This document shows positions 26,541-56,805 of a stretch of 64,000 nt of DNA, piece by piece. Within the stretch, counting starts at the first letter, position 1; each line of letters begins with the position of its first letter. A program made the translations under genes and the position numbers. The DNA is from an uncultured bacterium (GTDB taxonomy: Bacteria > Krumholzibacteriota > Krumholzibacteriia > JACNKJ01), in NCBI GenBank assembly GCA_963695095.1, contig CAVOFT010000001.1, positions 1,565,881 through 1,629,880 on the forward strand, read 5' to 3'. The notes below the pieces were generated by a model. That model saw nothing but the letters and a program-made list of their open reading frames with translations, was not told where the DNA came from and searched no databases.

Positions 26541-26674
26541 CTGGATCTTGAGTGCATGCCAAGGGCTTGCTGGCCAGCGGTCGAGCCGGATGCGTTATAC
26601 TCCCAGGGAGCGGGAGAAGCGGCCCTGCTAGGTGTCGCTCGCGCCAGCGAAGAACAGTCCGGGAGGATGCGGTG

Positions 26675-37313: not shown

Positions 37314-37634
37314 ATGGCGGTTTCGGTTCAAGCTCGCTTCGGCGCTCGTGCCGAGGTGCTCAAGGCGCTCGCGCACCCGACGCGCCTGCTCGTCGTCGAC
37401 GAGCTCTCGCGCGGCGAGCGCTGCGTGGCCGAGCTGACCGAGCTGGCCGGCGCGGACATGTCCACCGTCTCGCGGCACCTCGCCCAGCTGCGCAACGCCG
37501 GCATCCTTCAGGACGAGCGCCGCGGCGCCTGCATCTACTACTCCCTCAAGTGCCCCTGCGTGCTGAACTTCTTCACCTGCATCGAGTCCGTGCTCCAGGC
37601 CAACGCCGACGCGAACTCGAGCGCGGCGCGCTAG
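37314..37634 (+). CDS. arsR: ArsR/SmtB-family metalloregulator
   Basis: Winged-helix sequence with metal-binding ELSRGERCVAEL; GGAGGT RBS before ATG 37314. Confidence 0.8.
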   Translation: MAVSVQARFGARAEVLKALAHPTRLLVVDELSRGERCVAELTELAGADMSTVSRHLAQLRNAGILQDERRGACIYYSLKCPCVLNFFTCIESVLQANADANSSAAR

Positions 37635-37644
37635 GGGGATCGGC

Positions 37645-38956
37645 GTGGCTGTCTTCTCCTGGCGGCGCGAGGGACGAGCGCTTGCGGTCATTGCGGGCGG
37701 CTTCCTCGCCGCCTACTTCCTGCCGGTGGGGCGGGCCCGCGTGGACGGCGCCATTCTGGAGTCCCTGCAGCTGCTGCGCTGGTACGCCCGCGAGCACGTG
37801 CTGCTCTGCCTGGTGCCGGCCTTCTTCATCGCCGGAGCCATCGGCGTTTTCCTGCGCAAGGACACGGTGTTGCGCTACCTGGGGCCCGGCGCGCCCAAGC
37901 CGCTGGCCTACGGCGTCGCCTCGGTGTCGGGTGGCGTGCTGGCCGTCTGCTCCTGCACGGTGCTGCCGCTGTTCGCCGGCATCTACCGCATGGGCGCCGG
38001 GCTCGGCCCCGCAGCGGCCTTCCTGTACGCCGGGCCGGCGATCAACGCGCTGGCCATCATTCTCACGGCGCGCATCCTCGGATTCGAGCTGGGCATCGCG
38101 CGCGCGGTAGGGGCGGTCGTCTTCAGCATCGTCATCGGCCTGGCGATGGCCCTCCTCTTCCGTGGTGGCGAAGCGGTGCGGGCGCAGGCGGCGATGCCCG
38201 CGGAGACGGCGGCCTCCAGGCCGTTGAGGCAGATCGGCGCTCAGCCTGGCCGCGATGCTGGCGGTCCTGATCTTCGCCAACTGGGGCGCGCCGGCCGCTG
38301 GCCTCGGCTTCTGGACGGCTGTCCACGCGATCAAGTGGCCCCTGACCGGGCTGGCCGCGCTGGCGCTCGGTCTCATGCTGGTCCGCTGGTTTGGGTTGGC
38401 CTGGCGGGAGCTGGCCTTGATCAGCCTGCCCGTGGCCCTGCTCGCGCTCGTCGGCCCCGGGCGCCCGCTCCTGCCCTTCGGGGTAGCGATCCTGCTGCTG
38501 GCCTGGCGCCTGGGGCGGCGTGGGGCGGAGGACGAACTGGGCGAATGGCTGGCAGCCAGCTGGGGCTTCGCACGGCAGATCCTGCCCCTGCTGCTCGGCG
38601 GCATCCTGGTCGCCGGCCTGCTGCTCGGCCGCCCCGGCGGTGAGGGGCTTATTCCCTCCGCCTGGGTGGCGCGCGCGGTGGGGGGCAATTCGATCGGCGC
38701 CAATCTCTTCGCGGCCGTGGCGGGGGCCTTCATGTACTTCGCCACCCTGACGGAGATCCCCATTCTCCAGGGACTGCTGGGCTCCGGGATGGGCAAGGGC
38801 CCGGCGCTCGCGCTGCTGCTGGCCGGGCCCGCGCTCTCGCTGCCCAGCATGCTCGTCATCGGCGGCATTCTCGGCCTGCGCAAGACCTTCGTCTTCATCG
38901 TGCTCGTGGTCGCCATGGCGACGCTGACCGGGCTTCTCTACGGAGCCCTCTTCTAG
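37645..38956 (+). CDS. DUF318-family permease, ArsP-like (one +1 frame change)
   Basis: Polytopic membrane protein with VCSC motif; N-half in ORF 37645.., C-half in ORF 38255..38956; shift near 38200. Confidence 0.7.
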
Positions 38957-38966
38957 GGAGGATGCG

Positions 38967-39200
38967 ATGCACAAGCTGCAGATCCTGGGCACGGGTTGCC
39001 CCAAGTGCCGGCAGCTCGAAGCCAATGCGCGGGAGGCGGCAGCTGCCGCCGGCGGCGACTGGGCGGTGGAGAAGATCAGCGACCTGAACGCGATCATCGC
39101 CTTCGGGGTGATGATGACGCCCGCCCTCGCCATCGACGGCGAGGTGAAGTCCACGGGCAAGGTGCTCTCGCCCGAGGCCATCCGGGCGCTGCTGCCATGA
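38967..39200 (+). CDS. redox-active disulfide protein 2 (small thioredoxin-like)
   Basis: 77 aa with ILGTGCPKC. Confidence 0.75.
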   Translation: MHKLQILGTGCPKCRQLEANAREAAAAAGGDWAVEKISDLNAIIAFGVMMTPALAIDGEVKSTGKVLSPEAIRALLP

Positions 39201-39676
39201 GGCGCGCTCGCCTGCTCGTCGCAGCGCTGCTGATGGCCTTGCTGGCGCCCGCCGCCGTCGGAGAGCCGGTGGGGGAGCCCGTGCCGGCGCCTGGGGACTC
39301 GCTGGCGACGCCTGCCGGCGGCGTCGAGTTGATCTACTTCCACGCCACCCTGCGCTGCGAGACCTGCCTCGCCTTGGAGGCCAGCATCGAGCGCTGCCTG
39401 CGCGCGGAGTTCGCGGCCGAGCTCGCGCAAGGCAGGCTGGCCTGGCGCAGCCTGGACTACGAGCTCGGCGAAGGGCGCGCCTTGCACGCGAACCTGGAGC
39501 TGAGCGGCAGCGAACTCGTGATCCGGCGGCGCGCGGCCGGCGAGAGTCGTGACGCGCAGCCGATCCGCAGCGTCTGGAATGCGCCGGAGGCCGTTGCGCT
39601 CTGCGACTCCCTCCAGCCCATCGTCACGCAGTACCTCCGCGCCCAGCCGGACGCCGAGGCAACCAGCGGCCGCTGA
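39197..39676 (+). CDS. hypothetical secreted protein with CxxC (CETC)
   Basis: In-frame ATG in ORF 38996..39676 overlapping the previous stop; signal peptide MRRARLLVAALLMALLAPAAVG. Confidence 0.45.
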   Translation: MRRARLLVAALLMALLAPAAVGEPVGEPVPAPGDSLATPAGGVELIYFHATLRCETCLALEASIERCLRAEFAAELAQGRLAWRSLDYELGEGRALHANLELSGSELVIRRRAAGESRDAQPIRSVWNAPEAVALCDSLQPIVTQYLRAQPDAEATSGR

Positions 39677-39700
39677 GCGAGCCGCATCCGAGGAGCAGCG

Positions 39701-40183
39701 ATGAACCGGAGATTGCGCGTCGCGATCCTGCTGGTGGTGGCCCTGGCCGTGGCGGCCGTGCTGCTCTGGGGACGAGGCGCCGAGGCGCCCGGCCGTGCGG
39801 AGGCGCCGGGAGCGGCGCCGGTGGCGGCGGTCGCCGTGGCGCCTGCTGCCGGGGAAGCCGGCAAGCCGGCCGCGCTGCCGCGCCTGGTGGACCTGGGCTC
39901 GACCACCTGCATTCCCTGCAAGAAGATGGCGCCCATCCTCGCCGAGCTGGCCGCCGAGCAGGCCGGCCACCTCGAGGTGCTCGTCATCGACATCCGCGAG
40001 GATCCGGATGCGGCTGCCACCTACGGCATCCGCCTGATCCCGACGCAGATCTTCTTCGATGCGGGGGGCAAGGAACTCTGGCGGCACGAGGGCTTCATCG
40101 ACAAGGCCGCCATCCTCGCGCGCTGGGCCGAACTGGGCGTGGCGCTGCCCGGCGTCGCGCCCGCCGCGGAGCCAGCGGGATGA
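39701..40183 (+). CDS. membrane-anchored thioredoxin
   Basis: N-terminal TM helix then thioredoxin fold with CIPC active site. Confidence 0.7.
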   Translation: MNRRLRVAILLVVALAVAAVLLWGRGAEAPGRAEAPGAAPVAAVAVAPAAGEAGKPAALPRLVDLGSTTCIPCKKMAPILAELAAEQAGHLEVLVIDIREDPDAAATYGIRLIPTQIFFDAGGKELWRHEGFIDKAAILARWAELGVALPGVAPAAEPAG

Positions 40184-40875
40184 GCGAGGTCTTCAGCAGC
40201 CTGACCGGAGCAGTGCAGGGCGCCTGGCCCCTGGCCCTCGGCGCGGCTTTCCTGTGGGGCGTGCTCAGCATCGTGCTCAGCCCCTGCCACCTGGCCAGCA
40301 TTCCGCTCATCGTGGCCTTCATCGGGGGCCAGGGTCCGAGCAGCACGCGGCGCGCCGCGGCGCTGGCGAGCCTCTTCAGCCTTGGCATCCTGGTCACCAT
40401 CGCGGCGATCGGCCTGGCGACGGCCGCCCTCGGCCGCATGCTGGGCGATGTCGGCCGCGCCGGCAACTGGATCGTCGCGATCGTCTTCCTCGCGGTGGGC
40501 CTGCACCTGGTCGGCGTGATTCCAATGCCCGGCGGGCCCGCGCGGGTGGGCCTCGCGCGGCGCGGGGCGCTCGGTGCCCTGCTGCTCGGCCTCGTCTTCG
40601 GCATCGCGCTCGGGCCCTGCACCTTCGCCTACCTGGCGCCCATGCTGGCAGTCACGCTCTCCGCCGGCTCGGTGAGCCTCCTCTTCGGCAGTCTGCTGCT
40701 CCTGACCTACGGCATCGGCCACACGGCGGTGATCGCTGTCGCCGGCACCTTCACCCAGCTCGTCCAGCGCACGCTCGACTGGAACGAGCGATCACGGACT
40801 TTGGGCGTGATCCGGAGGATCTGTGGCGTACTCATCATCCTGGCGGGGCTCTATTTGCTCGCACTGGCGCGCTAG
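40180..40875 (+). CDS. ccdA: cytochrome c biogenesis/DsbD-type transmembrane electron transporter
   Basis: Two conserved membrane Cys (LSPCHLASIP, GPCTFAYLAP) in a six-TM core. Confidence 0.8.
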   Translation: MSEVFSSLTGAVQGAWPLALGAAFLWGVLSIVLSPCHLASIPLIVAFIGGQGPSSTRRAAALASLFSLGILVTIAAIGLATAALGRMLGDVGRAGNWIVAIVFLAVGLHLVGVIPMPGGPARVGLARRGALGALLLGLVFGIALGPCTFAYLAPMLAVTLSAGSVSLLFGSLLLLTYGIGHTAVIAVAGTFTQLVQRTLDWNERSRTLGVIRRICGVLIILAGLYLLALAR

Positions 40876-41389
40876 GCGATACGCCGGTTCGGCGCTGCTG
40901 ATCGCCGGCGGCCTCCTGGCCAGCGGCATGCCCGCGGCCGCGGCGACGCAGCGCCTGCCCGCGCTCTGGCTCAGCGACCTCCATGGCGGCCGCGCGCCCC
41001 TGGACAGCCTGCTCGGCGCGCGGCCGGCCCTGCTCCTCTTCTGGAGCACGCCCTGCCAGTCCTGTCTGGACAAGCTGCGCGCCGTCGAGGCCTTCGCCCA
41101 GGCGCGCGCCGAACAGGATCTCGCCCTGCTCATGGTCAACATCGACGCGCCGCGCAACAAGAACCAGATCGCACCCTTCTTGCATCGCTTCGAGTTCACG
41201 GCGCCTTGCTTCGTCGATCCCGAGCGCGCCGCCTTCCGCAAGCTCGGCGGCCGGGAGGCGCCCTACCTGGTGCTCCTTTCCGCGGAACGCGAGGTCCTCT
41301 ATCGCAGCGGCAGCCTTGATCGCCGCGATCTGACGGCCATTGCCGCCTTGCTCGAGGCTCAGGACTCGGCAGGCTCGGCGCATGACTAG
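40823..41389 (+). CDS. TlpA-like periplasmic thiol:disulfide oxidoreductase
   Basis: Redoxin fold with WSTPCQSC; start uncertain (track start overlaps ccdA by ~50 nt). Confidence 0.6.
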   Translation: MAYSSSWRGSICSHWRARRYAGSALLIAGGLLASGMPAAAATQRLPALWLSDLHGGRAPLDSLLGARPALLLFWSTPCQSCLDKLRAVEAFAQARAEQDLALLMVNIDAPRNKNQIAPFLHRFEFTAPCFVDPERAAFRKLGGREAPYLVLLSAEREVLYRSGSLDRRDLTAIAALLEAQDSAGSAHD

Positions 41390-41834
41390 AGCCGCGGTGC
41401 TGTTTCTCTGCACGGGCAACGCCTGCCGCAGCCAGATGGCCGAGGGCTGGGCGCGTCACCTGCACGGCAAGCGGGTCGATGCGGTATCGGCCGGCATGGC
41501 GCCCGCGGGCCTGGATCCCCGGGCCGTGCGTGTGATGGCGGAGGTCGGAGTCGACATCGGCGGCCAGCAGAGCAAGGGACTTGCCGAGCTGGGCAAGCGA
41601 CGCTTCGAGCTCGTCGTCACCGTCTGCGACCGGGCGCGGGAGGCCTGTCCCGTGCTGCCCGGCGCACGGCACCTGCACGCGGGCTTTCCCGATCCGCCGG
41701 CCCTCGCTCGCGGCGCGGCGAGCGAGGAGGAGGCTCTGGATCACTACCGGCGGGTGCGCGATGCCATCCGCGAGCTCGTCGCCGGCCTGCCGGCGCTGCT
41801 GGCCGCCGCGCGGGGCCCCGGAGGCCAGCGCTGA
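41382..41834 (+). CDS. arsC: arsenate reductase, thioredoxin-coupled LMW-PTP type
   Basis: [14 protein letters not shown]-loop. Confidence 0.85.
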
Positions 41835-43027
41835 TGCCCGCGGAAGCCTGTGTCAGCAAGCGCCCCGGAGGGCTGGGCGGCTTCGAGCGCTGGCTCACGC
41901 TCTGGGTGCTGCTGTCGATCGGGGCGGGCATCCTGCTCGGCAAGCTGGCGCCGGGCCTGGCGCGCTGGCTGGACGGCCTCGCGCTCCGCGTCGACGGCGC
42001 GCCGGTGATCAGCCTGCCCATCGCCCTCTGCCTCTTCTTCATGATGTACCCGATCATGGTCAAGATCGACTTCGCCGAGCTGCTGCGCGCCGGCCGCGGC
42101 GCGAAGCCGGTGGCGCTCACCCTCGTCGTCAACTGGGCGATCAAGCCCTTCACGATGCTCGCCATCGCGAGCTTCTTCCTCGGCGGCGTCTTCTTGCGCT
42201 TCATCGGTCCGGAGGCCGTGGACCTGGTCAAGCTGCCCCTCGGACTCGACCTGCCGGTGGGGGCGAGCTACGGCGCAGGCACCGTGGTGCTCGCCGATGG
42301 CGTCAAGCTGCTGGCCGTGCCGCTCTGGCGCAGCTACCTGGCCGGCTGCATCCTGCTGGGCGTGGCGCCCTGTACGGCGATGGTGCTGGTCTGGGGCTAC
42401 CTCGCCCGCGGCAACGACGGCCACACCCTGGTGATGGTGGCGATCAACTCGCTCGCGATGCTCCTTCTCTACGGACCGCTGGGCGGCCTGCTGCTCGGCG
42501 TGGGCCGCCTGCCCGTGCCCTGGCAGGCCCTGCTGCTCTCGATCGCCGTCTATGTCGCCCTGCCCCTGGTCGCGGGCTACCTCACGCGGCGCTGGCTGGT
42601 GGCCGCCCGCGGCGAGGCCTGGTTCGCCGAGCACTTCCTGCATCGGCTGACTCCGGTCACCATCGTCGCGCTGCTGACCACGCTCGTCCTGCTCTTCTCC
42701 TTCAAGGGCGAGACGATCCTCGCCGCCCCGCTCACGATTCTCTGGATCGCGGTGCCGCTCTTCCTGCAGACCCTCCTCATCTTCGGACTCACCTATCTCC
42801 TGGCCCACCGCCTGCGCCTGGACTACCGCGATGCGGCTCCCAGCGCGCTGATCGGCGCCTCCAATCACTTCGAGGTCGCCATCGCCACGGCCACGCTGCT
42901 CTTCGGCCTCGGCTCCGGCGCCGCGCTGGCCACGGTGGTGGGCGTTCTCATCGAGGTGCCGGTGATGCTGCTCCTCGTGCGGCTTTGCCTGCGCAGTCGT
43001 GGCCGCTTCGCCGCCTTCGCGCGTTGA
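41834..43027 (+). CDS. acr3: ACR3-family arsenite efflux transporter
   Basis: ACR3 signature …[14 protein letters not shown]… and ~10 TM helices. Confidence 0.9.
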
Positions 43028-43095
43028 CAGCAGCCCCCGGCGCGAGGCACCCTGGCCCGGCCGGCGCTCGGGCCGGCCTTCCCGGAGGGTATCGG

Positions 43096-44484
43096 ATGCC
43101 GCGACGCCTGCCTGCGCGCCTGACGCGCCGTCTCGCCCTGCTCTTCGCCCTGCTCGCGGCCGGCGCCGCCCACGCCGGGGCTGCGCCGCCGCGGCATGTC
43201 ATCCTGTGCATCGGCGACGGCATGGGCTTCAACCACGTCGCCCTGGCCAGCCTCTGGGCCGCGGGCCGGCCGGACGCGGCGCCCTTCGCCGACTGGCCGG
43301 TGCGTCTCGCCTTGAGCACCGAGCCCGCCGGCGCGCCGCCCTACTCGCCCGCCGGCTTCTGGAGCCAGTCCGGCCAGCGACGGCGCGGCATCACCGATTC
43401 CGCGGCGGCGGCCACGGCCCTCGCCACGGGGGTCAAGACGGCGAACGGAGTGCTGGGGCTCACCCCCGACGGCCGTCCCCTGCACAATCTCACCGAGTGG
43501 CTGGGTGAGCGCGGTCTCGCGACGGGGTTGGTCACGAGCGTGCCCTTCGTCCATGCCACGCCGGCCGGCTTCGTCGTGCACGTCGAGGACCGCGACGACT
43601 ACCGCGCCATCGCCCGGCAGCTCCTGCTGGAGAGCCGCCTGCGCGTGCTGATGGGCTGCGGCGATCCTGCCTACGCCGCCGACGGCCGGCCGCTCGAGCA
43701 GCCCCGGGGCTTCGGCAAGGTCGGCGGCCGCGAGCTGTGGGCGGGGCTGCTCGCCGGGGCGACGACCTTCGACCTGGACGGCGACGGCGCCATCGACGCG
43801 GAGCTGATGGATCTGGACGGCGACGGCCGGCGCGATCCCTGGCAGCTCGTCACGGAGCGCGCCGCGGTGCAGGCCCTCGCCGCCGGCCCGACGCCGCTGC
43901 GCCTGCTCGTCGTGCCGCGCGGCGGACTCACGCTGCAGGCCGAGCGCCCCGGCCCCCGCCATCGCGCGCCCTTCGCGGTGCCCTTCGATGAATCGCTGCC
44001 CACGCTCGCCGAGATGAGCCTGGCCGCGCTCAACGTGCTCGACACGGATCCGGACGGCTTCTTCCTCATGATCGAGGGCGGCGCCATCGACTGGGCGGCC
44101 CACGACAACGATGCGGGCCGCCTGGTCGAGGAGCAGCTTGCCTTCCATGCCGCCGTCGCTGCGGTGATGGACTGGGTCGCGCGGGAGAGCAGCTGGGAGG
44201 AGACCTTGCTCATCGTCACCGCCGACCACGAGACGGGCGGCCTCAGCGCGCCGGGCTGGGGGCGCCGACGCTGGCAGCCGCTGCGCTCGCGCGGCATCCA
44301 TCGCCTGGCGCGGCATCAGTGGGGCAGCAGCGATCACAGCGGCGCCCTCGTGCCGCTCTATGCGATCGGTTGCGGCAGCGAGACGCTGGCCGCGCTGGCC
44401 GAGGGCAGCGATCCGCGCCGCGGCCCCTACCTCGACAACACGGCGATCGCCCCGGCCATCCGGGCGCTCTGGCGGCATCGCTGA
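43096..44484 (+). CDS. alkaline phosphatase
   Basis: Signal peptide; active-site block ITDSAAAATALATGVKT; GGAGGG RBS before ATG 43096. Confidence 0.85.
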   Translation: MPRRLPARLTRRLALLFALLAAGAAHAGAAPPRHVILCIGDGMGFNHVALASLWAAGRPDAAPFADWPVRLALSTEPAGAPPYSPAGFWSQSGQRRRGITDSAAAATALATGVKTANGVLGLTPDGRPLHNLTEWLGERGLATGLVTSVPFVHATPAGFVVHVEDRDDYRAIARQLLLESRLRVLMGCGDPAYAADGRPLEQPRGFGKVGGRELWAGLLAGATTFDLDGDGAIDAELMDLDGDGRRDPWQLVTERAAVQALAAGPTPLRLLVVPRGGLTLQAERPGPRHRAPFAVPFDESLPTLAEMSLAALNVLDTDPDGFFLMIEGGAIDWAAHDNDAGRLVEEQLAFHAAVAAVMDWVARESSWEETLLIVTADHETGGLSAPGWGRRRWQPLRSRGIHRLARHQWGSSDHSGALVPLYAIGCGSETLAALAEGSDPRRGPYLDNTAIAPAIRALWRHR

Positions 44485-44537: not shown

Positions 44538-45716
44538 TTAGCCGCGCGGCGTGGCGGCGAGCTGTTCGAAGCGGGCGAGCTGCAGCTTGAGGTAGTCGCT
44601 GTCCGGGTTCAGCTGCAGGGCTTCGCGGATCAGGGTCAGCGCCTCCCCGCAGTCGCCGCGCGCATTGCAGAGCTCGGCCAGCGTGTCCAGGATGTTCGCC
44701 TTCTCGCCGCCCTCCGCCAGGGCCACGCCGCGGCGAGCGAAGGCTTCGCCCTCGGCCAGGGCGACCTCGTTCTCGAAGCACCACCAGGCGATCTCGTTGA
44801 GGGCGGCGGCCTCCTGCTCCCAGCCCGGGGCCATGCTCTTGCGCTTCCAGGCGAAGGCCTCGTCCTGGCGGCCGTCGATGAGCAGCGCGTGGTCGGCCAT
44901 CAGGCGGGCATGCAGGCGCTGCTCCTCGGCGTCCGTTGCGCCGGCGAGCCGCGCCGCGCCCAGCTTGAGCCCTTCCAGGTAGGGGCTGCGGTCCTCCTTG
45001 CCCGCCGTGGCCTGCCCCAGCAAGGCCACGGTCTCCATCACCTGCTGGCCGCTGCTGCGCGGATCGCCGATGACCGCGCGGGCCGGCTCCAGGAGGGCCG
45101 CCTCGCCGAAGAGCCCCGCCCGCTGGCCGCGGGCGATGAGCTCGACCATGGCCGGCGCCAGGTGATCCGAGCTGCCCAGCTCCTGGGCGCGGCGATACCA
45201 GGCGAGGGCTTCGCCGAAGGCGCCGCCGACCTGCTCGAGCTCGGCGATCTTCACTGCCGCCGCCGCCGTCGGTGTCTTCCGGAAGTCCCGGCGGCGCTCG
45301 ATGAGCGGTAGGGGCGCTGCCGTCGCGGCGCGCAGGGCCGTCAGGAAGGGCTCGGCGGCGCCATAGCCGAGCCAGCCATCGAGCAGGATACCGTCGGCAT
45401 CGACGAGCAGGAAGGTCGGATAGGCGTGGACGCCGTAGCGGCGAGCGAGGCCGATGCCCTCGCCCTTCTCGGCGTCGACAGGGAGCAGGATGGCCTGGGC
45501 GGCGATGTCCTGCCGGAAGGTCTCGCTGGCCTTCACCTCACGGGCGAAGGTCTGGCAGGAGCCTCACCAGGAGGTGCCGATCTCGAGCAGGATGGGCCGT
45601 CCGCTGGCGGCGGCCTGGGCGCCGGCGGCCGCCATGCTGTCGACGGTGTCGGCCACCGCGGCGCCGGCGGCGAAGGTGAAGGCGACGAGGAGGCTGGCGG
45701 CGAGCAGGGTTTTCAT
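44538..45716 (-). CDS. secreted thioredoxin-fold/TPR-like protein with in-frame TGA at the CxxC position (candidate selenoprotein)
   Basis: ORFs 45564..45773 and 44538..45536 share one frame; joined product …PILLEIGTSW-[TGA]-GSCQTFAREVKASETF…YPTFLLVD…; signal peptide MKTLLAASLLVAFTFAAGAAVA. Confidence 0.6.
45530..45550 (-). promoter_or_regulatory. SECIS-like hairpin candidate
   Basis: mRNA CCUUCGCC-CGUGA-GGUGAAGG (8 bp including one G-U, GU in the loop) begins 13 nt after the UGA. Confidence 0.35.
45564..45566 (-). other. in-frame UGA, candidate selenocysteine codon
   Basis: Sits at the first-Cys position of a W-C-x-x-C motif (W-U-G-S-C). Confidence 0.5.
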
Positions 45717-45862
45717 GCGCGGTCGTCTCCGATGAAGGTGGCCGCAAGGGGCGCCGACGGCAGCCTGCCACATCGGCGATCGCCCTGCGGGAGGGCCCTC
45801 ACAGTGGCAGAGCTGGCAGGGGGGCGCAAGCGGATCGAGACGGGTCGAGCTGGGGCGGCGGG

Positions 45863-46207
45863 CTAGAGCGAGCTGGGCATGCTGTCGGCGACGGACTCCT
45901 CCTCGCCCAGTTCCTTCTCGAGCACGGTCAGCAGCACCTGGGCGCCGTTGCGCGACTTGTTGGGGTCCAGGTAGTCGCGGATGGCCGCCTCCAGGGCATT
46001 GATGCGGGAGTTGAGATCATCGATGATGCTCTCCTGCAGGGAGAGGGCGCCCTGCAGGGAGGCGCACTCGCTGCGGAGCCGGCCGATGAGGCGCTCCTGC
46101 TGGTCGAGCCCGGTGAGCAGGGCGTCGATTTCTTCGCGGTGCGCGGCCAGGCTGAGCCGGCTCGCGGCGAGAAGCTGCTGCTTGGCCACGTCGAGCCGGT
46201 GGTTCAT
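45863..46207 (-). CDS. hypothetical coiled-coil protein
   Basis: ORF track; heptad-like Leu/Gln-rich sequence. Confidence 0.4.
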   Translation of the reverse strand: MNHRLDVAKQQLLAASRLSLAAHREEIDALLTGLDQQERLIGRLRSECASLQGALSLQESIIDDLNSRINALEAAIRDYLDPNKSRNGAQVLLTVLEKELGEEESVADSMPSSL

Positions 46208-46584: not shown

Positions 46585-47598
46585 ATGCGGTGGGGCGTCG
46601 TTCTTGCTAATCTGGGTTCCTGGTCCGGGAATTCTCGGGTCCTTGCCGCCACCGCCGGCCCGACTCGGTGGCTGGCCAACACGAAGGGGTTTCCCACGAG
46701 CGCTTCCGCCGGTCATGGCGCCGAACGCCTTTCCGAGCGCCGCTTCCGCCGGAGCATGCGCCTCCTCGGCGCGGCTTCGACCGCCGCGCTGCTCTGGCTC
46801 TGCTGGCGCGGCGCCGGGTTCTACCTGACCGCGGATGCCGAGCGTCCCCTGCACGCGGACTACGAGCGCTGGCGGCCGGCTGGAGACATCGGCCACGGCC
46901 TGGGCATCCTCGGCTCCCTGATGATGGTGATCCTGCTCGGCTACAGCCTGCGCAAGCGCTGGCGCCCCCTGCGCGCGGCGGGGCCCATCTCGCGCTGGCT
47001 CAGCGTGCACATCTACCTGGGCATTTTCGGCCCACTGCTCGTCGTGCTGCACAGCGCCTTCAAGGTGAACGGCCTCGTCTCGCTGAGCTTCTGGTCGATG
47101 GTGGCGGTGGCGGCCAGCGGCGTCCTGGGCCGCTATCTCTATCTCCAGATTCCGCGCAACCTGCAGGGCGACGCGCTGGACCTGGCGGCCCTCGAGACCG
47201 AGGACGCCGCGCTGAACGCGGCGCTGGCCGCCGACTTCGGCCTCGATGCGCAGACCCTGGCTGGACTGCAGCGTCTGGGGGGAACCGGGGAAGCTCGATC
47301 CCTGGGCGCGGCCTTGCTCGCCTCGCTCGCCAGCGACCTCACGCTGTCCCTGCGCCTGCGTCGCTTCCTCGCCCAGCGGACGGCCGGCTTTCGCCTACCC
47401 GCGGGCGAGCGGCGCCGGCTCCTGGCCCTGGCTCGCCGGCGGGCGCTCCTCGCGCGACGGCGCTTGCTGCTCGAGCGCCTGGAGCGGATCTTCCACTACT
47501 GGCATGTGATCCACAAACCTTTCGCCGTCGTGATGCTCGCCATCATGGTCGTGCACGTGGGAGTGACCGTCCTGTTGGGCTACCGATGGATCTTCTAA
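46585..47598 (+). CDS. membrane protein with His-bearing TM helices (cytochrome b-like)
   Basis: ~5 predicted helices with His pairs (…IGHGLGILG…, …SVHIYLGIFGPLLVVLHSAF…, …HYWHVIHKPFAVVMLAIMVVHVG…); stop overlaps the next start (TAATG); start codon uncertain. Confidence 0.5.
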   Translation: MRWGVVLANLGSWSGNSRVLAATAGPTRWLANTKGFPTSASAGHGAERLSERRFRRSMRLLGAASTAALLWLCWRGAGFYLTADAERPLHADYERWRPAGDIGHGLGILGSLMMVILLGYSLRKRWRPLRAAGPISRWLSVHIYLGIFGPLLVVLHSAFKVNGLVSLSFWSMVAVAASGVLGRYLYLQIPRNLQGDALDLAALETEDAALNAALAADFGLDAQTLAGLQRLGGTGEARSLGAALLASLASDLTLSLRLRRFLAQRTAGFRLPAGERRRLLALARRRALLARRRLLLERLERIFHYWHVIHKPFAVVMLAIMVVHVGVTVLLGYRWIF

Positions 47599-49277
47599 TG
47601 CGGGGCGCGCTGCGCTGCGCTCTGCTCTGCCTCGCCTGCGCCTGGGCGACGCCGGCCCCTGCCCAGCTCTCGCCGGGGCCGCTGTCCACGCCCCACGCCG
47701 AGCTCGAGGGCCTCAAGCGCTGCACGAGCTGCCACGAGATCGGCGAGGGCGTGCGCGCGGACAAGTGCTTCGCCTGTCATCGCCAGCTCGGCGCGCGGAT
47801 CGCCGCGGGCCAGGGCCTGCACGCCGGTGCCGACTACGCGAACTGCATCGGCTGTCACTCCGAGCACCACGGGCGCGACTATCCCCTCATCCGCTGGCCC
47901 GGCGGCGAAGCCAACTTCGACCACGGGGCCGCCGGCTACACGCTCGTCGGCGCCCATGCCCGCCTCGGCTGCCGCGACTGCCACCGCGAGGCGTTCGTCG
48001 CCGGCGCTGCCGCGCTGAGGGCCGAAGGCAGCGATCCCGCGCGCAGCTTTCTCGGACTCGGCAAGACCTGCCTGGACTGCCACCAGGATCCGCATCGCGG
48101 CGAGCTGGGCGCGCGCTGCCTCGCCTGCCACGGCGAGGAGGCCTGGCGGCCCGCCGCCGGCTTCGACCACGCGAGCACGCGCTATCCCCTGCGCGGCAAG
48201 CACGCAGATGTGGCTTGCGAGAAGTGCCATCCGCGCAGCGGCGGCGCCGCGACGGGGGACCTGCACATCGCCTTCAAGGGCGTCGCCTTTGCCGATTGCC
48301 GGGACTGCCACCAGGATCCGCACGCCGGCCGCTTCAAGGAAGCCTGCGCGAGCTGTCACAGCGAGAGCGGCTGGCGGCAGGGCGCGAGCGCGCGCTTCGA
48401 TCACGAGCGCACGCGCTATCCTCTGCGCGGCCGGCACGCCGCGCTGGACTGCGGGGCCTGCCACAAGCCGGGCGTCCCGCACGCGCCCCTGGCCCACGCG
48501 CGCTGTCTGGACTGTCACGCGGACAAGCATGAAGGGCAGTTCAAGCTGGCCGGCGCGCTCAGGGATTGCAGCGATTGTCACGACGCCGGCATCAAGGGCT
48601 TCGCGCCTGCGAAGTTCGGTCCGGCGCAGCACGCCGCGAGTCGCTACCCCCTGGCCGGAGCGCACCTGGCCGTGGCCTGCCGCGACTGCCATGCACCCAC
48701 GGCCGCCTTCGCCGCCGGGCGCTTCCGCTACGCCGACACCAGCTGCAGCAGCTGCCACGCGGATCCGCACGGCAAGGCGCTCGCGCTCGCGGGTGAGGCC
48801 CGCCGCTGCGAGGCCTGCCACCAGGTGGCGAGCTGGCGCGCTGTGGCCTGGGATCATGCGCAGACGGCCTTCCCCCTGGCCGAGCGCCACGCCGAGATCG
48901 CCTGCCGCGCTTGTCACGAGCCGATCGCCGGCCAGCCCGCCGGGACGCTGCGTTTCGCCGGCCTGGGCAAGGACTGCGCGACCTGCCATGCCGACGTCCA
49001 CCGGGGGCAGTTCGTGCTGGCCGGCGAGCAGGCGACGCGCTGCGAGCGCTGCCACGACAGCCGCGATTGGTTCGCCGCTCGCTTCGAGCACAACCGCGAT
49101 GCGCGCTTTGCCCTGGACGGCGCCCACGCGCCCCTGGCTTGCACCGCCTGCCACCAACCCCTCGCAGCTGCAGCGGGCCAGCCGGTCACGCTGCGCTACA
49201 AGCCGCTGCCGACGGACTGCAAGTCCTGTCATCCGGACCTCGTCCCGGCAGCGTCCACGCAAGGAGATCGGCCATGA
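47598..49277 (+). CDS. multiheme c-type cytochrome (~20 CxxCH)
   Basis: Signal peptide MRGALRCALLCLACAWATPAPA; ~20 CxxCH in repeated FDHxxTxYPLxGxHxxxxCxxCH modules. Confidence 0.85.
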   Translation: MRGALRCALLCLACAWATPAPAQLSPGPLSTPHAELEGLKRCTSCHEIGEGVRADKCFACHRQLGARIAAGQGLHAGADYANCIGCHSEHHGRDYPLIRWPGGEANFDHGAAGYTLVGAHARLGCRDCHREAFVAGAAALRAEGSDPARSFLGLGKTCLDCHQDPHRGELGARCLACHGEEAWRPAAGFDHASTRYPLRGKHADVACEKCHPRSGGAATGDLHIAFKGVAFADCRDCHQDPHAGRFKEACASCHSESGWRQGASARFDHERTRYPLRGRHAALDCGACHKPGVPHAPLAHARCLDCHADKHEGQFKLAGALRDCSDCHDAGIKGFAPAKFGPAQHAASRYPLAGAHLAVACRDCHAPTAAFAAGRFRYADTSCSSCHADPHGKALALAGEARRCEACHQVASWRAVAWDHAQTAFPLAERHAEIACRACHEPIAGQPAGTLRFAGLGKDCATCHADVHRGQFVLAGEQATRCERCHDSRDWFAARFEHNRDARFALDGAHAPLACTACHQPLAAAAGQPVTLRYKPLPTDCKSCHPDLVPAASTQGDRP

Positions 49278-50560
49278 TCGCCGGGACCGCTCGACTTCGC
49301 CGCGCTCTGCCCTGGCTGCTGCTGCCGCTGCCCTTCCTGATCCTGCTCGGGGCCGGCGATGATCAAGCTGGACAGAGCCCGCAGAGCCCGCAGAGCCCGC
49401 ACGGACCGCTTGCCATCGACTGCGCGCACTGCCATGCCACGGATAGCTGGCGCTTCGCCGCCGGCCGGGGCTTCGCGCACGACAGCACGGGCTATGTCCT
49501 CGAGGGCGCGCACGCCCAGGCCGATTGCGTCGGCTGTCACGGCGACCTGCGCTTCGGCCGCGTCGCCTCGGCCTGCGCGGATTGCCACCTCGACGTGCAC
49601 GCCGGCGAGCTGGGCTTCGACTGCGCCGGCTGTCACTCTCCGCACGATTGGCAGCCGACGGGCGGGACCCTGGCCCTGCACGCCGCGCGCGGCTTTCCCC
49701 TGCTCGGTGTCCACGCGCGGGTGGATTGCGAATCCTGCCACGTCGGCGCCAAGGGCGAGGAGTTCGCGGGCACGCCGAGCGACTGCTTCGCCTGCCACGC
49801 CGACGACTACGCGGCGACCTCGGCGCCCGACCACGGGGCGGCGGGCATGTCCACGGACTGCCTGAGCTGCCACTCCTCGGTGGCGCCTGGCTGGGGCGAC
49901 AGCAACTTCGATCACGATGCCTACTTCCCGCTGAGCGGCGCCCACGCTCGCCTGGACTGCCTGGCCTGTCACCAGGGCGGCTTCGGCGGCCAGCCGACCA
50001 GCTGCATCGGCTGCCACCAGGCCGACTACGACGGCGCGGACGATCCCGATCACCGGGCCGCCAACTTCGACACGGCCTGCCTCGTCTGTCACAGCACGCA
50101 GGCCTGGTCGCCGGCCACCTTCAATCACGCGGCGACGGCCTTTCCGCTCACGGGCGCGCACACGAGCGCGAGCTGCCTGAGCTGCCATGCCTCCGGCTAC
50201 GCCGGCACGCCGACGGACTGCTACGCCTGCCACCAGGGGGACTTCGAAAGCGCCGACGATCCGGATCACGCGGCCGCCGGCTTCAACACGCAGTGCGCAG
50301 TCTGCCACTCCACGGCGAACTGGTCGCCCTCCACCTGGGACCACGATCAGCTCTTCCCGATCTACTCGGGCCGCCATCGGGGCGAGTGGAACAGCTGCGC
50401 GGACTGCCACGTGCAGTCCACGAACTACGCCGAGTTCGAGTGCATCCTCTGCCACGAGCACAGCCAGAACGAAACCGACGGCCATCACGACAACGTGGAC
50501 GACTACGTCTACGAGAGCGCGGCCTGCTTCGACTGCCACCCGCGCGGCGAGGCCGATTGA
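49274..50560 (+). CDS. multiheme c-type cytochrome (~16 CxxCH)
   Basis: Signal peptide; ~16 CxxCH in the same module type; ATGA overlap with the previous gene. Confidence 0.85.
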   Translation: MIAGTARLRRALPWLLLPLPFLILLGAGDDQAGQSPQSPQSPHGPLAIDCAHCHATDSWRFAAGRGFAHDSTGYVLEGAHAQADCVGCHGDLRFGRVASACADCHLDVHAGELGFDCAGCHSPHDWQPTGGTLALHAARGFPLLGVHARVDCESCHVGAKGEEFAGTPSDCFACHADDYAATSAPDHGAAGMSTDCLSCHSSVAPGWGDSNFDHDAYFPLSGAHARLDCLACHQGGFGGQPTSCIGCHQADYDGADDPDHRAANFDTACLVCHSTQAWSPATFNHAATAFPLTGAHTSASCLSCHASGYAGTPTDCYACHQGDFESADDPDHAAAGFNTQCAVCHSTANWSPSTWDHDQLFPIYSGRHRGEWNSCADCHVQSTNYAEFECILCHEHSQNETDGHHDNVDDYVYESAACFDCHPRGEAD

Positions 50561-52113
50561 TGCACAGGTTCATTCCGGCCCTCGCATTCCTGCTCGCCGC
50601 GAGCGCCGCCGCGGCCTCGCCGGAGGCGCGCATCCGCTACCTCTCGGCCGAGCAGGTCTATCTGGATGCGGGCCTCGCCGCCGGCTTCGCCGAGGGGGAT
50701 ACCCTGGGCGTGCTGCGCGAAGGCAGGACCGTGGCCAGCTTGCTCGTCCTCCATGCCGCCGAGCACTCGGCAGCCTGCCGCATCCTGGCCAGCCGGGTGG
50801 CGCTCGCCGCCGGCGACCGCGTGCGCGGAGTGCAGCGCAGCGCGCCGCCGGCCGTCGCCGTGCCTCCGGCAGCGCCGCGGCGGAGCCGGGACCCCGCGGC
50901 GCCCGCGCCCGGTAGCCCGGCGTCCCGCGCCTCCAGCGGCCGCTTCAGCGGCAGCCTGCGCTTCGCCTGGGACGCCTACCGGGACGACGCCGCCGCCGCG
51001 CGCGACTACGACCGGCTCAGCGCGACACTCGGCCTGCGCGGTGAGCAGCTGGCCGGCCGCGACCTGCGTCTCGATCTGCGCCTGCGCCAGCGCACGGTGA
51101 AGCGCACAGGCGCAGCCGACGAGCAGCGCCTGCGCCTCTACGCCGCGGCGATCGAGTACGGCGCAAGCAGGGGCCGCTGGCACCTGGCCGCGGGCCGCCT
51201 CGGTGGGGGCCGGCAATCGGGAGCCGGCGCTCTGGACGGCCTCCTCGTCGGCCGCCGTCTGGGCGATGCCGAACTCGGCGGCTACTTCGGCGCCATGCCC
51301 GACTGGAATGAGGAGGGCCTGCGCGATCGGGGCACGCGCGGGGGTCTCTACCTGCGCCAGCGCCTGGCATCCGCGCAGTGGTCCCTCGAAGCGGTGGGCG
51401 AGCGCCTCGCCGGCGAGAGCAGCCGCGACTACCTCCTGGCGGGCAGTTCCTGGCAGCGCGGCGCCCTCAGCCTGCGCGAACGCCTCGAACTGGATTGGAA
51501 CCGCGGTTGGCGGGGGGACCGGGCGGCGGACGCCCTTCAGGTCAGCGCGCTGAATGTCGGCGCCGACTGGCGGCCGCACGCGGACTTCGGCCTCGGCCTG
51601 CGTGTGGACAGCCGCGCCACGCCCCTGGACGGCGAGCAGCGCACGCTCCCCGATAGCCTCTTCCAGGAAGCGCGCTCGCAGGGCAGCAGCCTGAGCCTCT
51701 CCTGGCGTCCCCTGCCCGGCGCGCGCCTGGGCGCGCGCGCCGGTTGGCGCAGCCGCGCCGGGTCTGCGCGCGGGACGGCCTCATGGGGTCTGGACCTGGG
51801 CATCGACGCGCCGGCCCTGCCTCACCTGCACCTGGATCTCCGCCTGAGCGGCTTCGACGGCGAAGCGGCCCGAGGCCTCTCCCCGAGCGCGGACCTGCGC
51901 CGGCGCTTCCGCGCGGGCCACGAGCTGGGACTGGCCGCGGGCGCCTACCTCTACACGCCGCGCGACCTCGAGGCTCGCCACAATCGCTGGCTGCGCGCCG
52001 AGGGTCGCCTGGCGCTAGCCGGCCGCGCCTGGCTGGGGCTCTCCATCGAAACGGATGGCGGCGACGATCTCAGCGGCCGGCGCTTCGGCGCCGAACTGGG
52101 ACGGCGCTTCTAG
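50560..52113 (+). CDS. secreted Arg/Gly-rich protein, possible outer-membrane beta-barrel
   Basis: Signal peptide MHRFIPALAFLLAASAAAA; alternating hydrophobic pattern; C-terminal …GRRF; start overlaps the previous stop. Confidence 0.5.
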   Translation: MHRFIPALAFLLAASAAAASPEARIRYLSAEQVYLDAGLAAGFAEGDTLGVLREGRTVASLLVLHAAEHSAACRILASRVALAAGDRVRGVQRSAPPAVAVPPAAPRRSRDPAAPAPGSPASRASSGRFSGSLRFAWDAYRDDAAAARDYDRLSATLGLRGEQLAGRDLRLDLRLRQRTVKRTGAADEQRLRLYAAAIEYGASRGRWHLAAGRLGGGRQSGAGALDGLLVGRRLGDAELGGYFGAMPDWNEEGLRDRGTRGGLYLRQRLASAQWSLEAVGERLAGESSRDYLLAGSSWQRGALSLRERLELDWNRGWRGDRAADALQVSALNVGADWRPHADFGLGLRVDSRATPLDGEQRTLPDSLFQEARSQGSSLSLSWRPLPGARLGARAGWRSRAGSARGTASWGLDLGIDAPALPHLHLDLRLSGFDGEAARGLSPSADLRRRFRAGHELGLAAGAYLYTPRDLEARHNRWLRAEGRLALAGRAWLGLSIETDGGDDLSGRRFGAELGRRF

Positions 52114-52114
52114 C

Positions 52115-53405
52115 ATGGAGACCCTTGCCATCTGGGGCGGCGCCCTCTTGCTCGTGCTGGCCGTCGTGCTGCCCTACGCGCGCAGCTTCCGCCGCCGCGA
52201 GCGCGAGACGGCCGCCCGGCGCGCGGAAGCGGTAGCGCTGGGGGCCGATCGCGCCATCGCCCAGCACCCCCAGGTCGACGCGCTGCGCTGCATCGGCTGC
52301 GGCGCCTGTGTCGCCGCCTGTCCCGAGGGGGAGGTGCTGGGTCTGGTGGCGGGCAAGGCCGTCATCATCAACGGGCTCAAGTGCGTGGGCCACGGCCTCT
52401 GCGCGGTGGCCTGTCCGGTCGAGGGTATCAGCGTCGGGCTGGGCGACCTCGGCGCGCGCGACGACATCCCCCAGCACGATGCGCATCTGGAGACGAACCT
52501 GCCGGGGGTCTACGTGGCCGGCGAGTTGAGCGGCTATGCGCTGATCCGCAACGCGGTGGCCCAGGGCGTCCAGGCCGTCGAGCACATGGCGAGCCAGCCG
52601 CGGGCGGCGGCGGATCGCCTCGACCTGCTCATCGTGGGCGCCGGGCCGGCGGGCCTGGCCGCGGCCCTCGCCGCCAAGGAGGCGGGCCTGCGCAGCCTGG
52701 TGCTGGAGCGCGAGGCCGCGGGCGGGACAATCTTGCAGTACCCGCGCAAGAAGCTCGTGCTGACCCAGCCGGTGGCGATCCCCCTCTACGGCGTTCTCGA
52801 CCGCGAGGAGTACACCAAGGAGGAGCTGCTGGAGATCTGGCGCGGCATCGTCGAGCGCTTCGCGCTTGCCCATCGAGATCGGCGCCAGCGTGGACGGCAT
52901 GCAGGCGCTCGCCGGGGGCGGTTATCGCCTCACGGCCGCCGGGCGGCACTGGGATGCTCAGCGCGTGCTGCTCGCCCTGGGCCGCCGCGGCACGCCGCGC
53001 AAGCTGGGCGTGCCCGGCGAGGACAGCGAGAAGGTCTTCTACAAGCTGCTCGATGCCGCCTCCTTCGCCGGCGAGCGCGTGCTCGTCGTGGGCGGTGGCG
53101 ACAGCGCCGTCGAGGCGGCAATGGGCCTGGCCCTGCAGGAGCACACGGCCGTCACCCTCGCCTACCGCAAGGAGAAGCTGTTCCGCATCAAGCGGCGCAA
53201 CGAAGAGCGCTTCGCGCCGCTCCTGCGGGAGGGCCGCCTGCGCGCGGCCTTCAATGCGGATGTGCTCGCCATCGAGCCTGAGGCCGTACGCTTGCGCGTC
53301 GCGGGCAGGGAGGAGACGCTCGCCAACGATCGCGTCTTCGTTCTCGCGGGCGGCGAGCCGCCCTTCCCCCTGCTCAAGGCGATGGGCTTGCGCTTCGGCC
53401 GCTAG
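52115..53405 (+). CDS. membrane-anchored ferredoxin-domain/FAD-dependent pyridine nucleotide-disulfide-type oxidoreductase (one +1 frame change)
   Basis: N-terminal TM helix, CIGCGACVAACP and CVGHGLCAVACP cluster motifs, LLIVGAGPAG and VVGGGDSAVE dinucleotide motifs; C-terminal part in ORF 52866..53405; shift near 52860. Confidence 0.7.
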
Positions 53406-53431
53406 CGCCGGCGGCGCCAGCCGTGGCGGCC

Positions 53432-54268
53432 TCAGTCCCGCGCGCGCGGCGTGCCGGGCGCGCGCACCCAGTCCACCCAGGAGCCATCGTAGAGCGCGAC
53501 GTCGTCCTGGCCCAGGCGCGCGAAGGCGAAGGCCAGCACGCAGGCCGTGACGCCCGAGCCGCAGCTCACGGCCAGGGAGCGCTGCAGATTGAGACCCGCG
53601 GCGGCGACGCGCGCGCGCAGGCCCTCGTCGGCGAGCAAGCGGCCGTCTGCGTCGAGCAGCTCCGCATAAGGGAGGTTCCGGCTGTCCGGGATGCGCCCCG
53701 GCTCGCCCCAGGGCTCGGGGCCGAGGCCGGCGAAGCGCTCGCGGCTGCGGGCGTCCACGAGCAGGCGCTCGCGGCGCTCGAGGTTGGCGAGCACCGCCTC
53801 GCGATCCCAGACGGCGAAGCGCCCTGCCCGCGCTGCGCGCACTTGCGGTGCGGGGCGCTCTTCGCCGGTCGCCAGGGGCAGGCCCGCCCTCTGCCAGGCG
53901 GGCAGGCCGCCGTCCAGGACGGCGACGCGGGCCTGGCCGAAGTGGCGGAAGGTCCACCAGGCGCGGCAGGCGGCCGAAGCCACCCCCGTCTGATCATAGA
54001 CGACGACGCGATCGGCCTCGGCGATGCCGAGGGCGCCGGCCGCGGCGGCGAAGGTGGCCGCATCGGGCAGCATGTGGGGCAGCGCAGCCGGCGGGCCGGC
54101 CACGCTGTCGATGTCGAAGAAGACGGCGCCGGGCAGGCGCGCCTCGCGGTAGCGGGCGCGGGCATCCAGGCCGGAGGCCGGAGCGTGCCAGCTGGCGTCG
54201 ACGAGGCGCAGACCCGGCGCGCCGAGCAGAGCGGCCAGATCGGTGGGAGCGATGAGTTCGGCGTCCAT
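53432..54268 (-). CDS. sseA: 3-mercaptopyruvate/thiosulfate sulfurtransferase (tandem rhodanese)
   Basis: Two rhodanese domains with active-site CGSGVTAC. Confidence 0.85.
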   Translation of the reverse strand: MDAELIAPTDLAALLGAPGLRLVDASWHAPASGLDARARYREARLPGAVFFDIDSVAGPPAALPHMLPDAATFAAAAGALGIAEADRVVVYDQTGVASAACRAWWTFRHFGQARVAVLDGGLPAWQRAGLPLATGEERPAPQVRAARAGRFAVWDREAVLANLERRERLLVDARSRERFAGLGPEPWGEPGRIPDSRNLPYAELLDADGRLLADEGLRARVAAAGLNLQRSLAVSCGSGVTACVLAFAFARLGQDDVALYDGSWVDWVRAPGTPRARD

Positions 54269-56266: not shown

Positions 56267-56805
56267 GGCAACACTCCTCGCTGGATCAGGATCTCCCGCA
56301 GGCGGGCGCGGCAGCGGTACAGCCGGCGGTAGAGCAGCTCGGCAGCCAGGCCCTCCGAGGCTGCCAGTGTCGCCGGCGAGGCGCCGGCCAGCAGGCGGCG
56401 CAGGTAGCGGCTGCAATCGGGCGCGCTCGGCGCCAGCGCGTCCAGCGCAGCCGCCAGGGCATGGGAGCGCTCCGCGCGTTCGAGCGCTTCGAGCGGACTG
56501 GGCTCCGCGCTGCCGGCGACCTGCGCAGCGCTCAGCGACTCGTGGCGACGGTGCCGCTGGCGCTGGTAGTGGTTGCCGATCGTGTTGCGGAGCACCTGAA
56601 AGCACCAGGCCAGGGGGGGCAGGCCCTCGGGCATTCGCGCTTCGCCGGCAGCTCCCGCCACGATGCCCCGCTCGTAGACCACGCGCAACGCCTCCTGTAC
56701 CGTATCCTCGACCGCTTCGGCGGCCACGCGGCGGCTGGCGATCTCCATGAAGCGCGCCCGCAGGGCCGTCAACCAGCGCTCACGCTCGGCAGACGGCCCG
56801 CTCAT
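56263..56805 (-). CDS. ECF-type RNA polymerase sigma factor
   Basis: Sigma-70 region 2/4-like sequence; start overlaps the CHAT gene stop. Confidence 0.7.
   Translation of the reverse strand: MSGPSAERERWLTALRARFMEIASRRVAAEAVEDTVQEALRVVYERGIVAGAAGEARMPEGLPPLAWCFQVLRNTIGNHYQRQRHRRHESLSAAQVAGSAEPSPLEALERAERSHALAAALDALAPSAPDCSRYLRRLLAGASPATLAASEGLAAELLYRRLYRCRARLREILIQRGVLP

Follow-up and report, generated by a model that had tools for sequence, protein, structure and literature searches.

Gene organization and reading frame

The stretch of DNA analysed here, designated the window, comprises 64,000 nucleotides of contig CAVOFT010000001.1 (assembly GCA_963695095.1) of an uncultured bacterium of the Krumholzibacteriota, and the element in question is a minus-strand gene for a putative secreted selenoprotein, in which an in-frame TGA codon occupies the active site of a thioredoxin fold. 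Two minus-strand open reading frames (ORFs), 45564..45773 (69 aa) and 44538..45536 (332 aa, GTG start), share one frame and are parted only by the TGA at 45566..45564 and by nine sense codons (GSCQTFARE), which precede GTG 45536, the start chosen by the gene callers. Translation from ATG 45716 to TAA 44538 yields a single frame of 392 codons with this TGA as the only internal stop, and the arrangement put forward in the original prediction was thus confirmed both by the ORF listing and by translation. The read-through product begins with MKTLLAASLLVAFTFAAGAAVA, continues as DTVDS...PILLEIGTSW up to the TGA and as GSCQTFAREVK...YPTFLLVD after it, and ends in a long helical tail; GRPILLEIGTSW directly precedes the TGA, which corresponds to the first position of a W-x-x-x-C thioredoxin motif.

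The whole window was scanned for in-frame TGA codons with a codon log-odds score trained on the window's own genes. Three such codons with strongly coding flanks on both sides were found in the 64 kb, two of which are ordinary gene junctions, so that the TGA at 45566..45564 is the sole selenoprotein candidate of the window. Many of the predicted genes end in TGA as an ordinary stop codon, which excludes a genetic code with reassigned TGA. The geometry of start codon, TGA, and stop codon is identical in the orthologous loci L001, L002, and L004, and a scan for promoters and terminators around the gene gave no signal above background.

Domain organization and fold of the predicted protein

For comparison with Pfam and NCBIfam, the internal stop of the window protein was replaced by cysteine. 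The N-terminal part matched Thioredoxin_7 (PF13899; E 5.3e-14, 52.6 bits against a cut-off of 27, residues 26-107) and, with lower scores, PF13098 (Thioredoxin_2; 34.2 bits, cut-off 27) and PF00085 (Thioredoxin; 30.3 bits, cut-off 23.5), and several families of tetratricopeptide repeats (TPR) matched the C-terminal part. No NCBIfam model reached its cut-off on this protein; the selenoprotein models trx7_PDZ_seleno (NF041199) and TsoB (NF045694) scored 13.7 bits versus 300 and 19.4 bits versus 805, respectively, with no others at E <= 0.1. The Cys homologue P0021, which is of full length and 37% identical, was modelled with AlphaFold on a 30-sequence alignment; the model has a predicted local distance difference test (pLDDT) score of 93.8 and consists of a signal helix, a thioredoxin fold, and 14 further helices. 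The motif W-(U/C)-x-x-C is located at its beta1/alpha1 junction, following strand E41-46 and opening helix H51-62. Foldseek searches of the PDB with this model retrieved TPR superhelices and the thioredoxin-TPR proteins YbbN/CnoX (3qou, 3qdn), and the closest solved chain for the thioredoxin domain was 2kuc, followed by DsbD-gamma, in concordance with a sequence search of the PDB.

The cis-proline of the Y-P-T-F loop (Pro100) is invariant in the family alignment A2, and hydrophobic N-terminal segments are also present in the full-length homologues of this alignment. In the TPR domain, WWCFEN is invariant and ILDTLAE(I/L)CN..GDC is conserved. A thioredoxin fold, a signal peptide, and a TPR tail had all been proposed for the joined product at the outset, and all three were recovered, the first with a Thioredoxin_7 score above the Pfam threshold. 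Signal peptide and fold suggest a periplasmic location and a function as oxidoreductase.

As a separate observation, at residues of about 300-360 of the TPR domain (within 44541-45314, minus strand) the Cys of WWCFEN is invariant, and the two Cys residues of AE(I/L)CN..GDC are mostly conserved. They may be joined in a structural disulfide or provide a second site for redox chemistry or metal binding.

Homologues with presumed selenocysteine and with cysteine

Each of the 17 nearest homologues (48-100% identical) is annotated as a protein of 331-338 aa which starts just past the position of the TGA, while most of those at 33-42% identity extend over the full length (387-417 aa) and have thioredoxin Pfam domains. 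Database entries for the presumed selenocysteine (Sec) forms are truncated to about 332 aa, are labelled 'hypothetical' or 'TPR repeat', and lack the catalytic half; the splitting or truncation by gene callers that had been foreseen is therefore found in all sources. For eight truncated metagenomic homologues the DNA was checked, and each contains TGG-TGA-NNN-NNN-TGY, preceded by an ORF of 50-57 codons encoding a signal peptide and the beta1 strand.

A scan of GTDB r220 with one genome per species, a set that does not include the window's genome and in which the best hit is 39% identical, recovered 80 loci. Among these species representatives, 45 copies have TGA at the aligned codon, again within TGG-TGA-NNN-NNN-TGY, and 17 have TGC or TGT, besides a few degenerate ones (2 counted). 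Altogether, TGA is present in 54 distinct orthologous sequences, of which the 45 GTDB species representatives are part and which are 35-79% identical where measured. The stop at this codon is always TGA and never TAA or TAG. The protein is conserved on both sides of it, with the signal peptide, the beta-strand, and LLxxxxxW upstream and xxC...F-A-R downstream, and the Cys homologues P0018-P0032 and P0045 are continuous proteins with W-C-x-x-C (A2). The placement of the TGA at the attacking cysteine of the motif, as first proposed, hence agrees with TGA in the closest homologues and Cys in the more distant ones, and an end of the homologues at this position, the contrary case considered in the original prediction, was not encountered, as they continue through it with conservation on either side.

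The labels of the metagenome-assembled genomes (MAGs) with TGA orthologues span at least seven phylum-level lineages. For the family they include Krumholzibacteriota, Eisenbacteria, Zixibacteria, Gemmatimonadota, Latescibacterota, Acidobacteriota (Polarisedimenticola and others), Calditrichia, and Caldisericaceae, in addition to unclassified MAGs, and three Sec forms are located on closed MAG chromosomes (CP070763.1, CP070813.1, CP070742.1). The ClpX of the window's own genome is 79-87% identical to proteins named Candidatus Krumholzibacteriota. One base separates TGA from TGC or TGT, and a sequencing or assembly error, or else a pseudogene, was considered as an explanation. The codon nevertheless recurs in 54 independent sequences which differ in assembly, sequencing technology, and phylum, the flanks on either side show purifying selection, and the adjacent hairpin covaries (see below); by these comparative data an error or pseudogene is effectively refuted already, and we consider its probability negligible.

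Three loci are instructive for the relation between Sec and Cys forms. An Eisenbacteria MAG contig (L037) carries a Sec copy (TGA) at 3553 and a Cys copy (TGC) at 8054, 4.5 kb apart, and the hairpin occurs in the Sec copy only, so that the pair is a natural control within one genome. A Cys form of Zixibacteria (L041 2717, W-C-G-Y-C) keeps the hairpin TTTGCC-CGTGA-GGCAAA together with the peptide FAREAK, probably as a fossil element left by a recent conversion of Sec to Cys. In the divergent member L078 10079 (W-U-S-W-C-R-R-L-E-A), TGA is present and the family hairpin is absent, a different and weaker stem-loop being predicted instead.

The SECIS hairpin

Incorporation of Sec in bacteria depends on a selenocysteine insertion sequence (SECIS), and for the bacterial type (bSECIS) a published model is available, which specifies a loop of 3-9 nt, a stem of 4-16 bp, a minimum free energy of <= -7.5 kcal/mol, a G at loop position 1 or 2 with G or U directly after it, and 16-37 nt between UGA and loop (PMC13188914, Fig. 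2 legend). The window hairpin is formed by CCUUCGCC and GGUGAAGG with the loop CGUGA (45550..45530); it starts 13 nt past the TGA, has a stem of 8 bp, a loop of 5 nt with G then U at loop positions 2-3, a spacing of 21 nt from UGA to the loop, and a folding energy of -11.2 kcal/mol, and thus satisfies the model throughout. The 8-bp hairpin with GU in the loop had been recognized before from the window alone, and it was recovered at the same coordinates, now as a conserved and covarying element.

The pattern TTCRCY-CGKGN-RGYGRA occurs at a fixed distance in 53 of the 54 Sec forms, L078 being the exception, and the hairpins of the Sec forms have 6-8 bp and a loop C-G-K-G-N located 21 nt past the UGA. 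Pairing and covariation were computed on alignment A3, which consists of 45 Sec-form sequences, and compared with 500 column shuffles. Paired cells amounted to 93.6%, against 86.0 +/- 1.1% in the shuffles and 36-55% when the partners were slid, and the covariation score was 0.367, against 0.230 in the shuffles; neither value was reached in any of the 500. Compensatory changes are evident at the pairs 27-33 (CG 37, UA 6, UG 2), 25-35 (GU 23, GC 18, AU 4), and 21-39 (GC 25, CG 9, UA 4), and in L047 an otherwise invariant C-G pair is replaced by U-A. Synonymous sites within the hairpin are nearly frozen, with TTC for Phe in 45/45 and CGT (39) or CGG (6) for Arg even at about 70% GC; third-position entropy is 0-0.68 bit within the hairpin and 0.84-1.83 bit outside it. 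Amino acids at the loop and wobble positions vary (E/A, V/A). Frozen synonymous sites together with varying amino acids indicate that the constraint acts on the RNA and not on the protein. Conversely, 16 of the 17 Cys copies, all except L041, have no hairpin and an unrelated sequence at this site.

A scan of all loci with the bSECIS pattern returned the thioredoxin-TPR selenoprotein family and otherwise only junk frames, and Rfam at gathering thresholds reported only two tRNAs in the window. Bacterial SECIS elements are usually without resemblance to one another (PMC13188914), and an element that is nearly constant across several phyla and shows clean covariation is unusual. It should be a good handle for studies of SelB-SECIS recognition and for finding further selenoproteins in these genomes.

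The same region also bears on the arrangement predicted by all gene callers, namely two separate products, a peptide of 50 residues ending at the TGA and a TPR protein starting at GTG 45536, with a hairpin that serves regulation or coupling and is not a SECIS. Such a split would sever the thioredoxin fold at the end of strand beta1, just before the active-site motif; the downstream 'start' is not conserved (residue V or A), and its codon lies within the hairpin stem. As the Cys homologues are moreover continuous and the stop is invariably TGA, two products are extremely unlikely.

Decoding of the UGA codon

The locus is, on the comparative evidence described, very probably a genuine selenoprotein gene in which UGA 45566..45564 is read as Sec. 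By analogy with the established bacterial mechanism, the mRNA hairpin located 13-14 nt 3' of the UGA (7-8 bp, C-G-U-G-A loop) would act as a bacterial SECIS and recruit SelB-GTP with Sec-tRNA(Sec) to the ribosome. The resulting protein of 392 residues, composed of a thioredoxin-fold domain with W-U-G-S-C and a C-terminal TPR superhelix, would be exported by means of its Sec-type signal peptide. Once the protein is exported, Sec51 would attack, through its selenolate, disulfides or sulfenic acids of clients, and the mixed selenenylsulfide would then be resolved by Cys54, as fold and position of the Sec residue suggest; the protein may act as a reductase or as an oxidase. From its architecture, the TPR domain would most likely bind clients or partners, like that of the cytoplasmic CnoX/YbbN.

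Several results weigh against the assignment of a selenoprotein. ARAGORN predicted no tRNA-Sec in the window or in 41 Sec-form loci. A tblastn search for selA, selB, and selD over the window and 92 loci (1.35 Mb), for which E. coli SelA, SelB, and SelD sequences served as queries, gave only a BipA-type GTPase, and Pfam scans detected no sel gene among the 31 window proteins. The three approaches agree with the earlier statement that selA, selB, selD, and selC are missing from the window. The codon-score scan of the 64-kb window yielded no further selenoprotein gene, and no neighbour gene is conserved across the family, synteny being lineage-specific only, so that the surroundings provide no clue to the function. 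Finally, the short hairpin is not significant by folding energy taken alone (z = -0.91) in a sequence of 71% GC; its significance derives from conservation and covariation across the orthologues and not from single-sequence folding.

Since the window and the flanks of the related loci show no Sec machinery, and Cys would be chemically workable at the site, the hairpin might instead aid recoding of UGA to a residue other than Sec, either to Cys via a tRNA-Sec-like tRNA or by low-level near-cognate read-through. Cys is reportedly attached to a tRNA-Sec-like tRNA in some uncultured bacteria. The hairpin, however, matches the SelB-type bSECIS model, a single mutation would give a TGY codon, which 17 copies of the family have, and the prior for recoding of this kind is low; we regard it as very unlikely. 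Slightly less probable still is a relic, that is, a former selenoprotein gene which became non-functional after the Sec machinery was lost from the genome. Loss of the Sec trait is reported to be common in bacterial evolution (PMC1794560), but frame, signal peptide, SECIS, and TPR domain of the window gene are all intact without visible decay, and its product shares 79-90% identity with the nearest relatives. Reading of the UGA as Sec is the interpretation we retain, and the comparative signal, though indirect, makes a loss of decoding unlikely.

Comparison with known systems and proposed function

A catalogue published in 2026 lists 119 prokaryotic selenoprotein families, including thioredoxins of PF00085 with UxxC, thiol:disulfide interchange proteins of PF13098 with UxxC, and Trx7/PDZ proteins with CxxU, and the Thioredoxin_7-TPR architecture is absent from these 119 families (PMC13188914). 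Full-text literature searches revealed no paper that links selenoproteins with TPR-thioredoxin proteins or with the phyla concerned. With the PF00085 and PF13098 selenoproteins the window protein shares the thioredoxin fold, Sec as the first residue of UxxC, the existence of Cys homologues, and a SECIS in the coding region just after the UGA. By the description of these families, it differs from them in its best match to PF13899, its signal peptide, and its TPR superhelix of about 260 residues (WWCFEN, ILDTLAE). The Trx7/PDZ family NF041199 likewise combines a Thioredoxin_7-type domain with a protein-binding module and occurs as a selenoprotein, but Sec is the second residue of its motif (CxxU) and the module is PDZ rather than TPR, so the window protein is not a member. 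We therefore rate the thioredoxin-TPR selenoproteins as a new family of a known kind, where the catalogue families were compared by description and some overlap with the PF13098 entry is possible.

Among proteins of known structure, CnoX/YbbN (3qou, 3qdn) also has an N-terminal thioredoxin domain followed by TPR (Foldseek E about 1e-5). The likeness, an analogy of domain order, suggests a mode of action in which redox activity is combined with client binding. CnoX is cytoplasmic and without Sec, and the YbbN protein of E. coli has no CxxC motif. The global superposition is poor (TM score 0.23-0.32, root-mean-square deviation of 20 A or more), the window protein has neither a YbbN-type TPR match in Pfam nor a sequence match to 3qou, and it carries a signal peptide. 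The domains closest to its thioredoxin part are reductase-type thioredoxin domains of extracytoplasmic location, namely 2kuc, a putative disulphide isomerase of Bacteroides thetaiotaomicron (E 9e-12 by sequence, TM score 0.74 by fold), and DsbD-gamma (1vrs, 1uc7). These are single domains with CxxC which have neither Sec nor TPR, and the NCBIfam DsbD model reaches only 24.8 bits versus 330 on the window protein.

That the TPR superhelix binds client proteins and thereby makes the protein an extracytoplasmic analogue of the CnoX chaperedoxin is, on this analogy, conceivable though somewhat doubtful. More tentatively still, the locus may represent an uncatalogued family of exported thioredoxin-TPR proteins with Sec as the majority state, a selenium-dependent counterpart of CnoX outside the cytoplasm whose TPR arm and Sec reductase would together repair oxidised envelope proteins, a scheme we consider rather unlikely in its entirety. 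A secreted, Sec-bearing thioredoxin-TPR protein points to redox chemistry in the cell envelope that depends on selenium. The family adds a selenoprotein, and hence evidence for the use of Sec, in candidate phyla that selenoproteome surveys hardly cover, and annotation would gain from a family model that allows for Sec, by which hundreds of records would be corrected. No principle is changed by it, as no class of bacterial selenoprotein is commoner than the thioredoxin-fold UxxC type, a textbook case.

Features of the locus and genomic neighbourhood

Table 1 Coordinates of the features assigned to the candidate selenoprotein gene in the window
Feature	Position	Strand	Remarks
Whole candidate selenoprotein gene	44538..45716	minus	ATG 45716..45714, TAA 44540..44538, 392 codons including one UGA (Sec51)
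Shine-Dalgarno-like GGAG	45727..45730	minus	10 nt 5' of ATG 45716; read from the sequence, presumed function
Signal peptide coding region (MKTLLAASLLVAFTFAAGAAVA)	45651..45716	minus	A-V-A before the predicted cleavage site; sequence pattern
UGA (Sec51), first (attacking) position of W-U-G-S-C	45564..45566	minus	TGA conserved in orthologues, TGC/TGT in Cys copies
TGC of the resolving Cys54 (UxxC)	45555..45557	minus	TGY invariant in 45/45 A3 Sec forms (TGC 33, TGT 12)
Putative SECIS hairpin	45530..45550	minus	5' arm 45550..45543, loop CGUGA 45542..45538, 3' arm 45537..45530
Thioredoxin_7/thioredoxin-fold domain, residues 26-107	45396..45641	minus	Pfam PF13899; cis-Pro loop Y-P-T-F, Pro100 = 45419..45417
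All-helical TPR-like superhelical domain, about residues 135-392	44541..45314	minus	Pfam TPR, homologue model, Foldseek, A2 columns

The neighbourhood of the gene differs between the clades of the family (Table 1 for the gene itself). In the clade of the window, synteny involves a 114-aa coiled-coil gene, multihaem cytochromes, a rhodanese, and an alkaline phosphatase, and in another clade an amidohydrolase, UDG, and phosphodiesterases. The 114-aa gene (45863-46207, minus strand) is without a Pfam match, lies directly upstream of the candidate selenoprotein gene, and is conserved only in L001, L002, L004, and L006. A cluster at 46756-54268, syntenic with L001 and L002, consists of genes for a DUF4405-like membrane protein, three multihaem c-type cytochromes, a Fer4/Pyr_redox protein, and a tandem rhodanese, a composition which suggests an extracytoplasmic electron-transfer or sulfur module.

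On the other side, an ars-like operon (37356-44484, plus strand) is convergent with the candidate selenoprotein gene and has the same gene order in L001. It starts with an ArsR-type helix-turn-helix protein (by synteny with L001) and an ArsP_1 permease encoded by the adjacent genes 37645-38250 and 38255-38956, and continues with Thioredoxin_3 (by synteny with L001), Trx, DsbD_TM, AhpC/TSA, an LMWPc-type ArsC, SBF/ACR3, and an alkaline phosphatase. The ArsP_1 pair was considered as a split selenoprotein and rejected, since the halves are in different frames in L001 and hence represent two separate genes. The set of Trx, DsbD_TM, and AhpC/TSA, about 4 kb away and with a CcdA/DsbD_TM protein at 40180..40875, could supply electrons to the selenoprotein, a linkage to which we give little weight because it is confined to close relatives of the window.

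Proteins similar to GPX are selenoproteins in some bacteria (PMC13188914). The window contains a GSHPx-family gene (61927-62484, minus strand; E 1.8e-36) with an uninterrupted ORF, which identifies it as a Cys-type GPx. A further TPR protein, of 805 aa and with a CHAT domain, is encoded at 56802-59219 (minus strand), and two secreted proteins with C-terminal FlgD_ig-like domains, one with FG-GAP repeats and one with a beta-helix, are encoded at 1170-1886 and 26672-28693 (plus strand), respectively.

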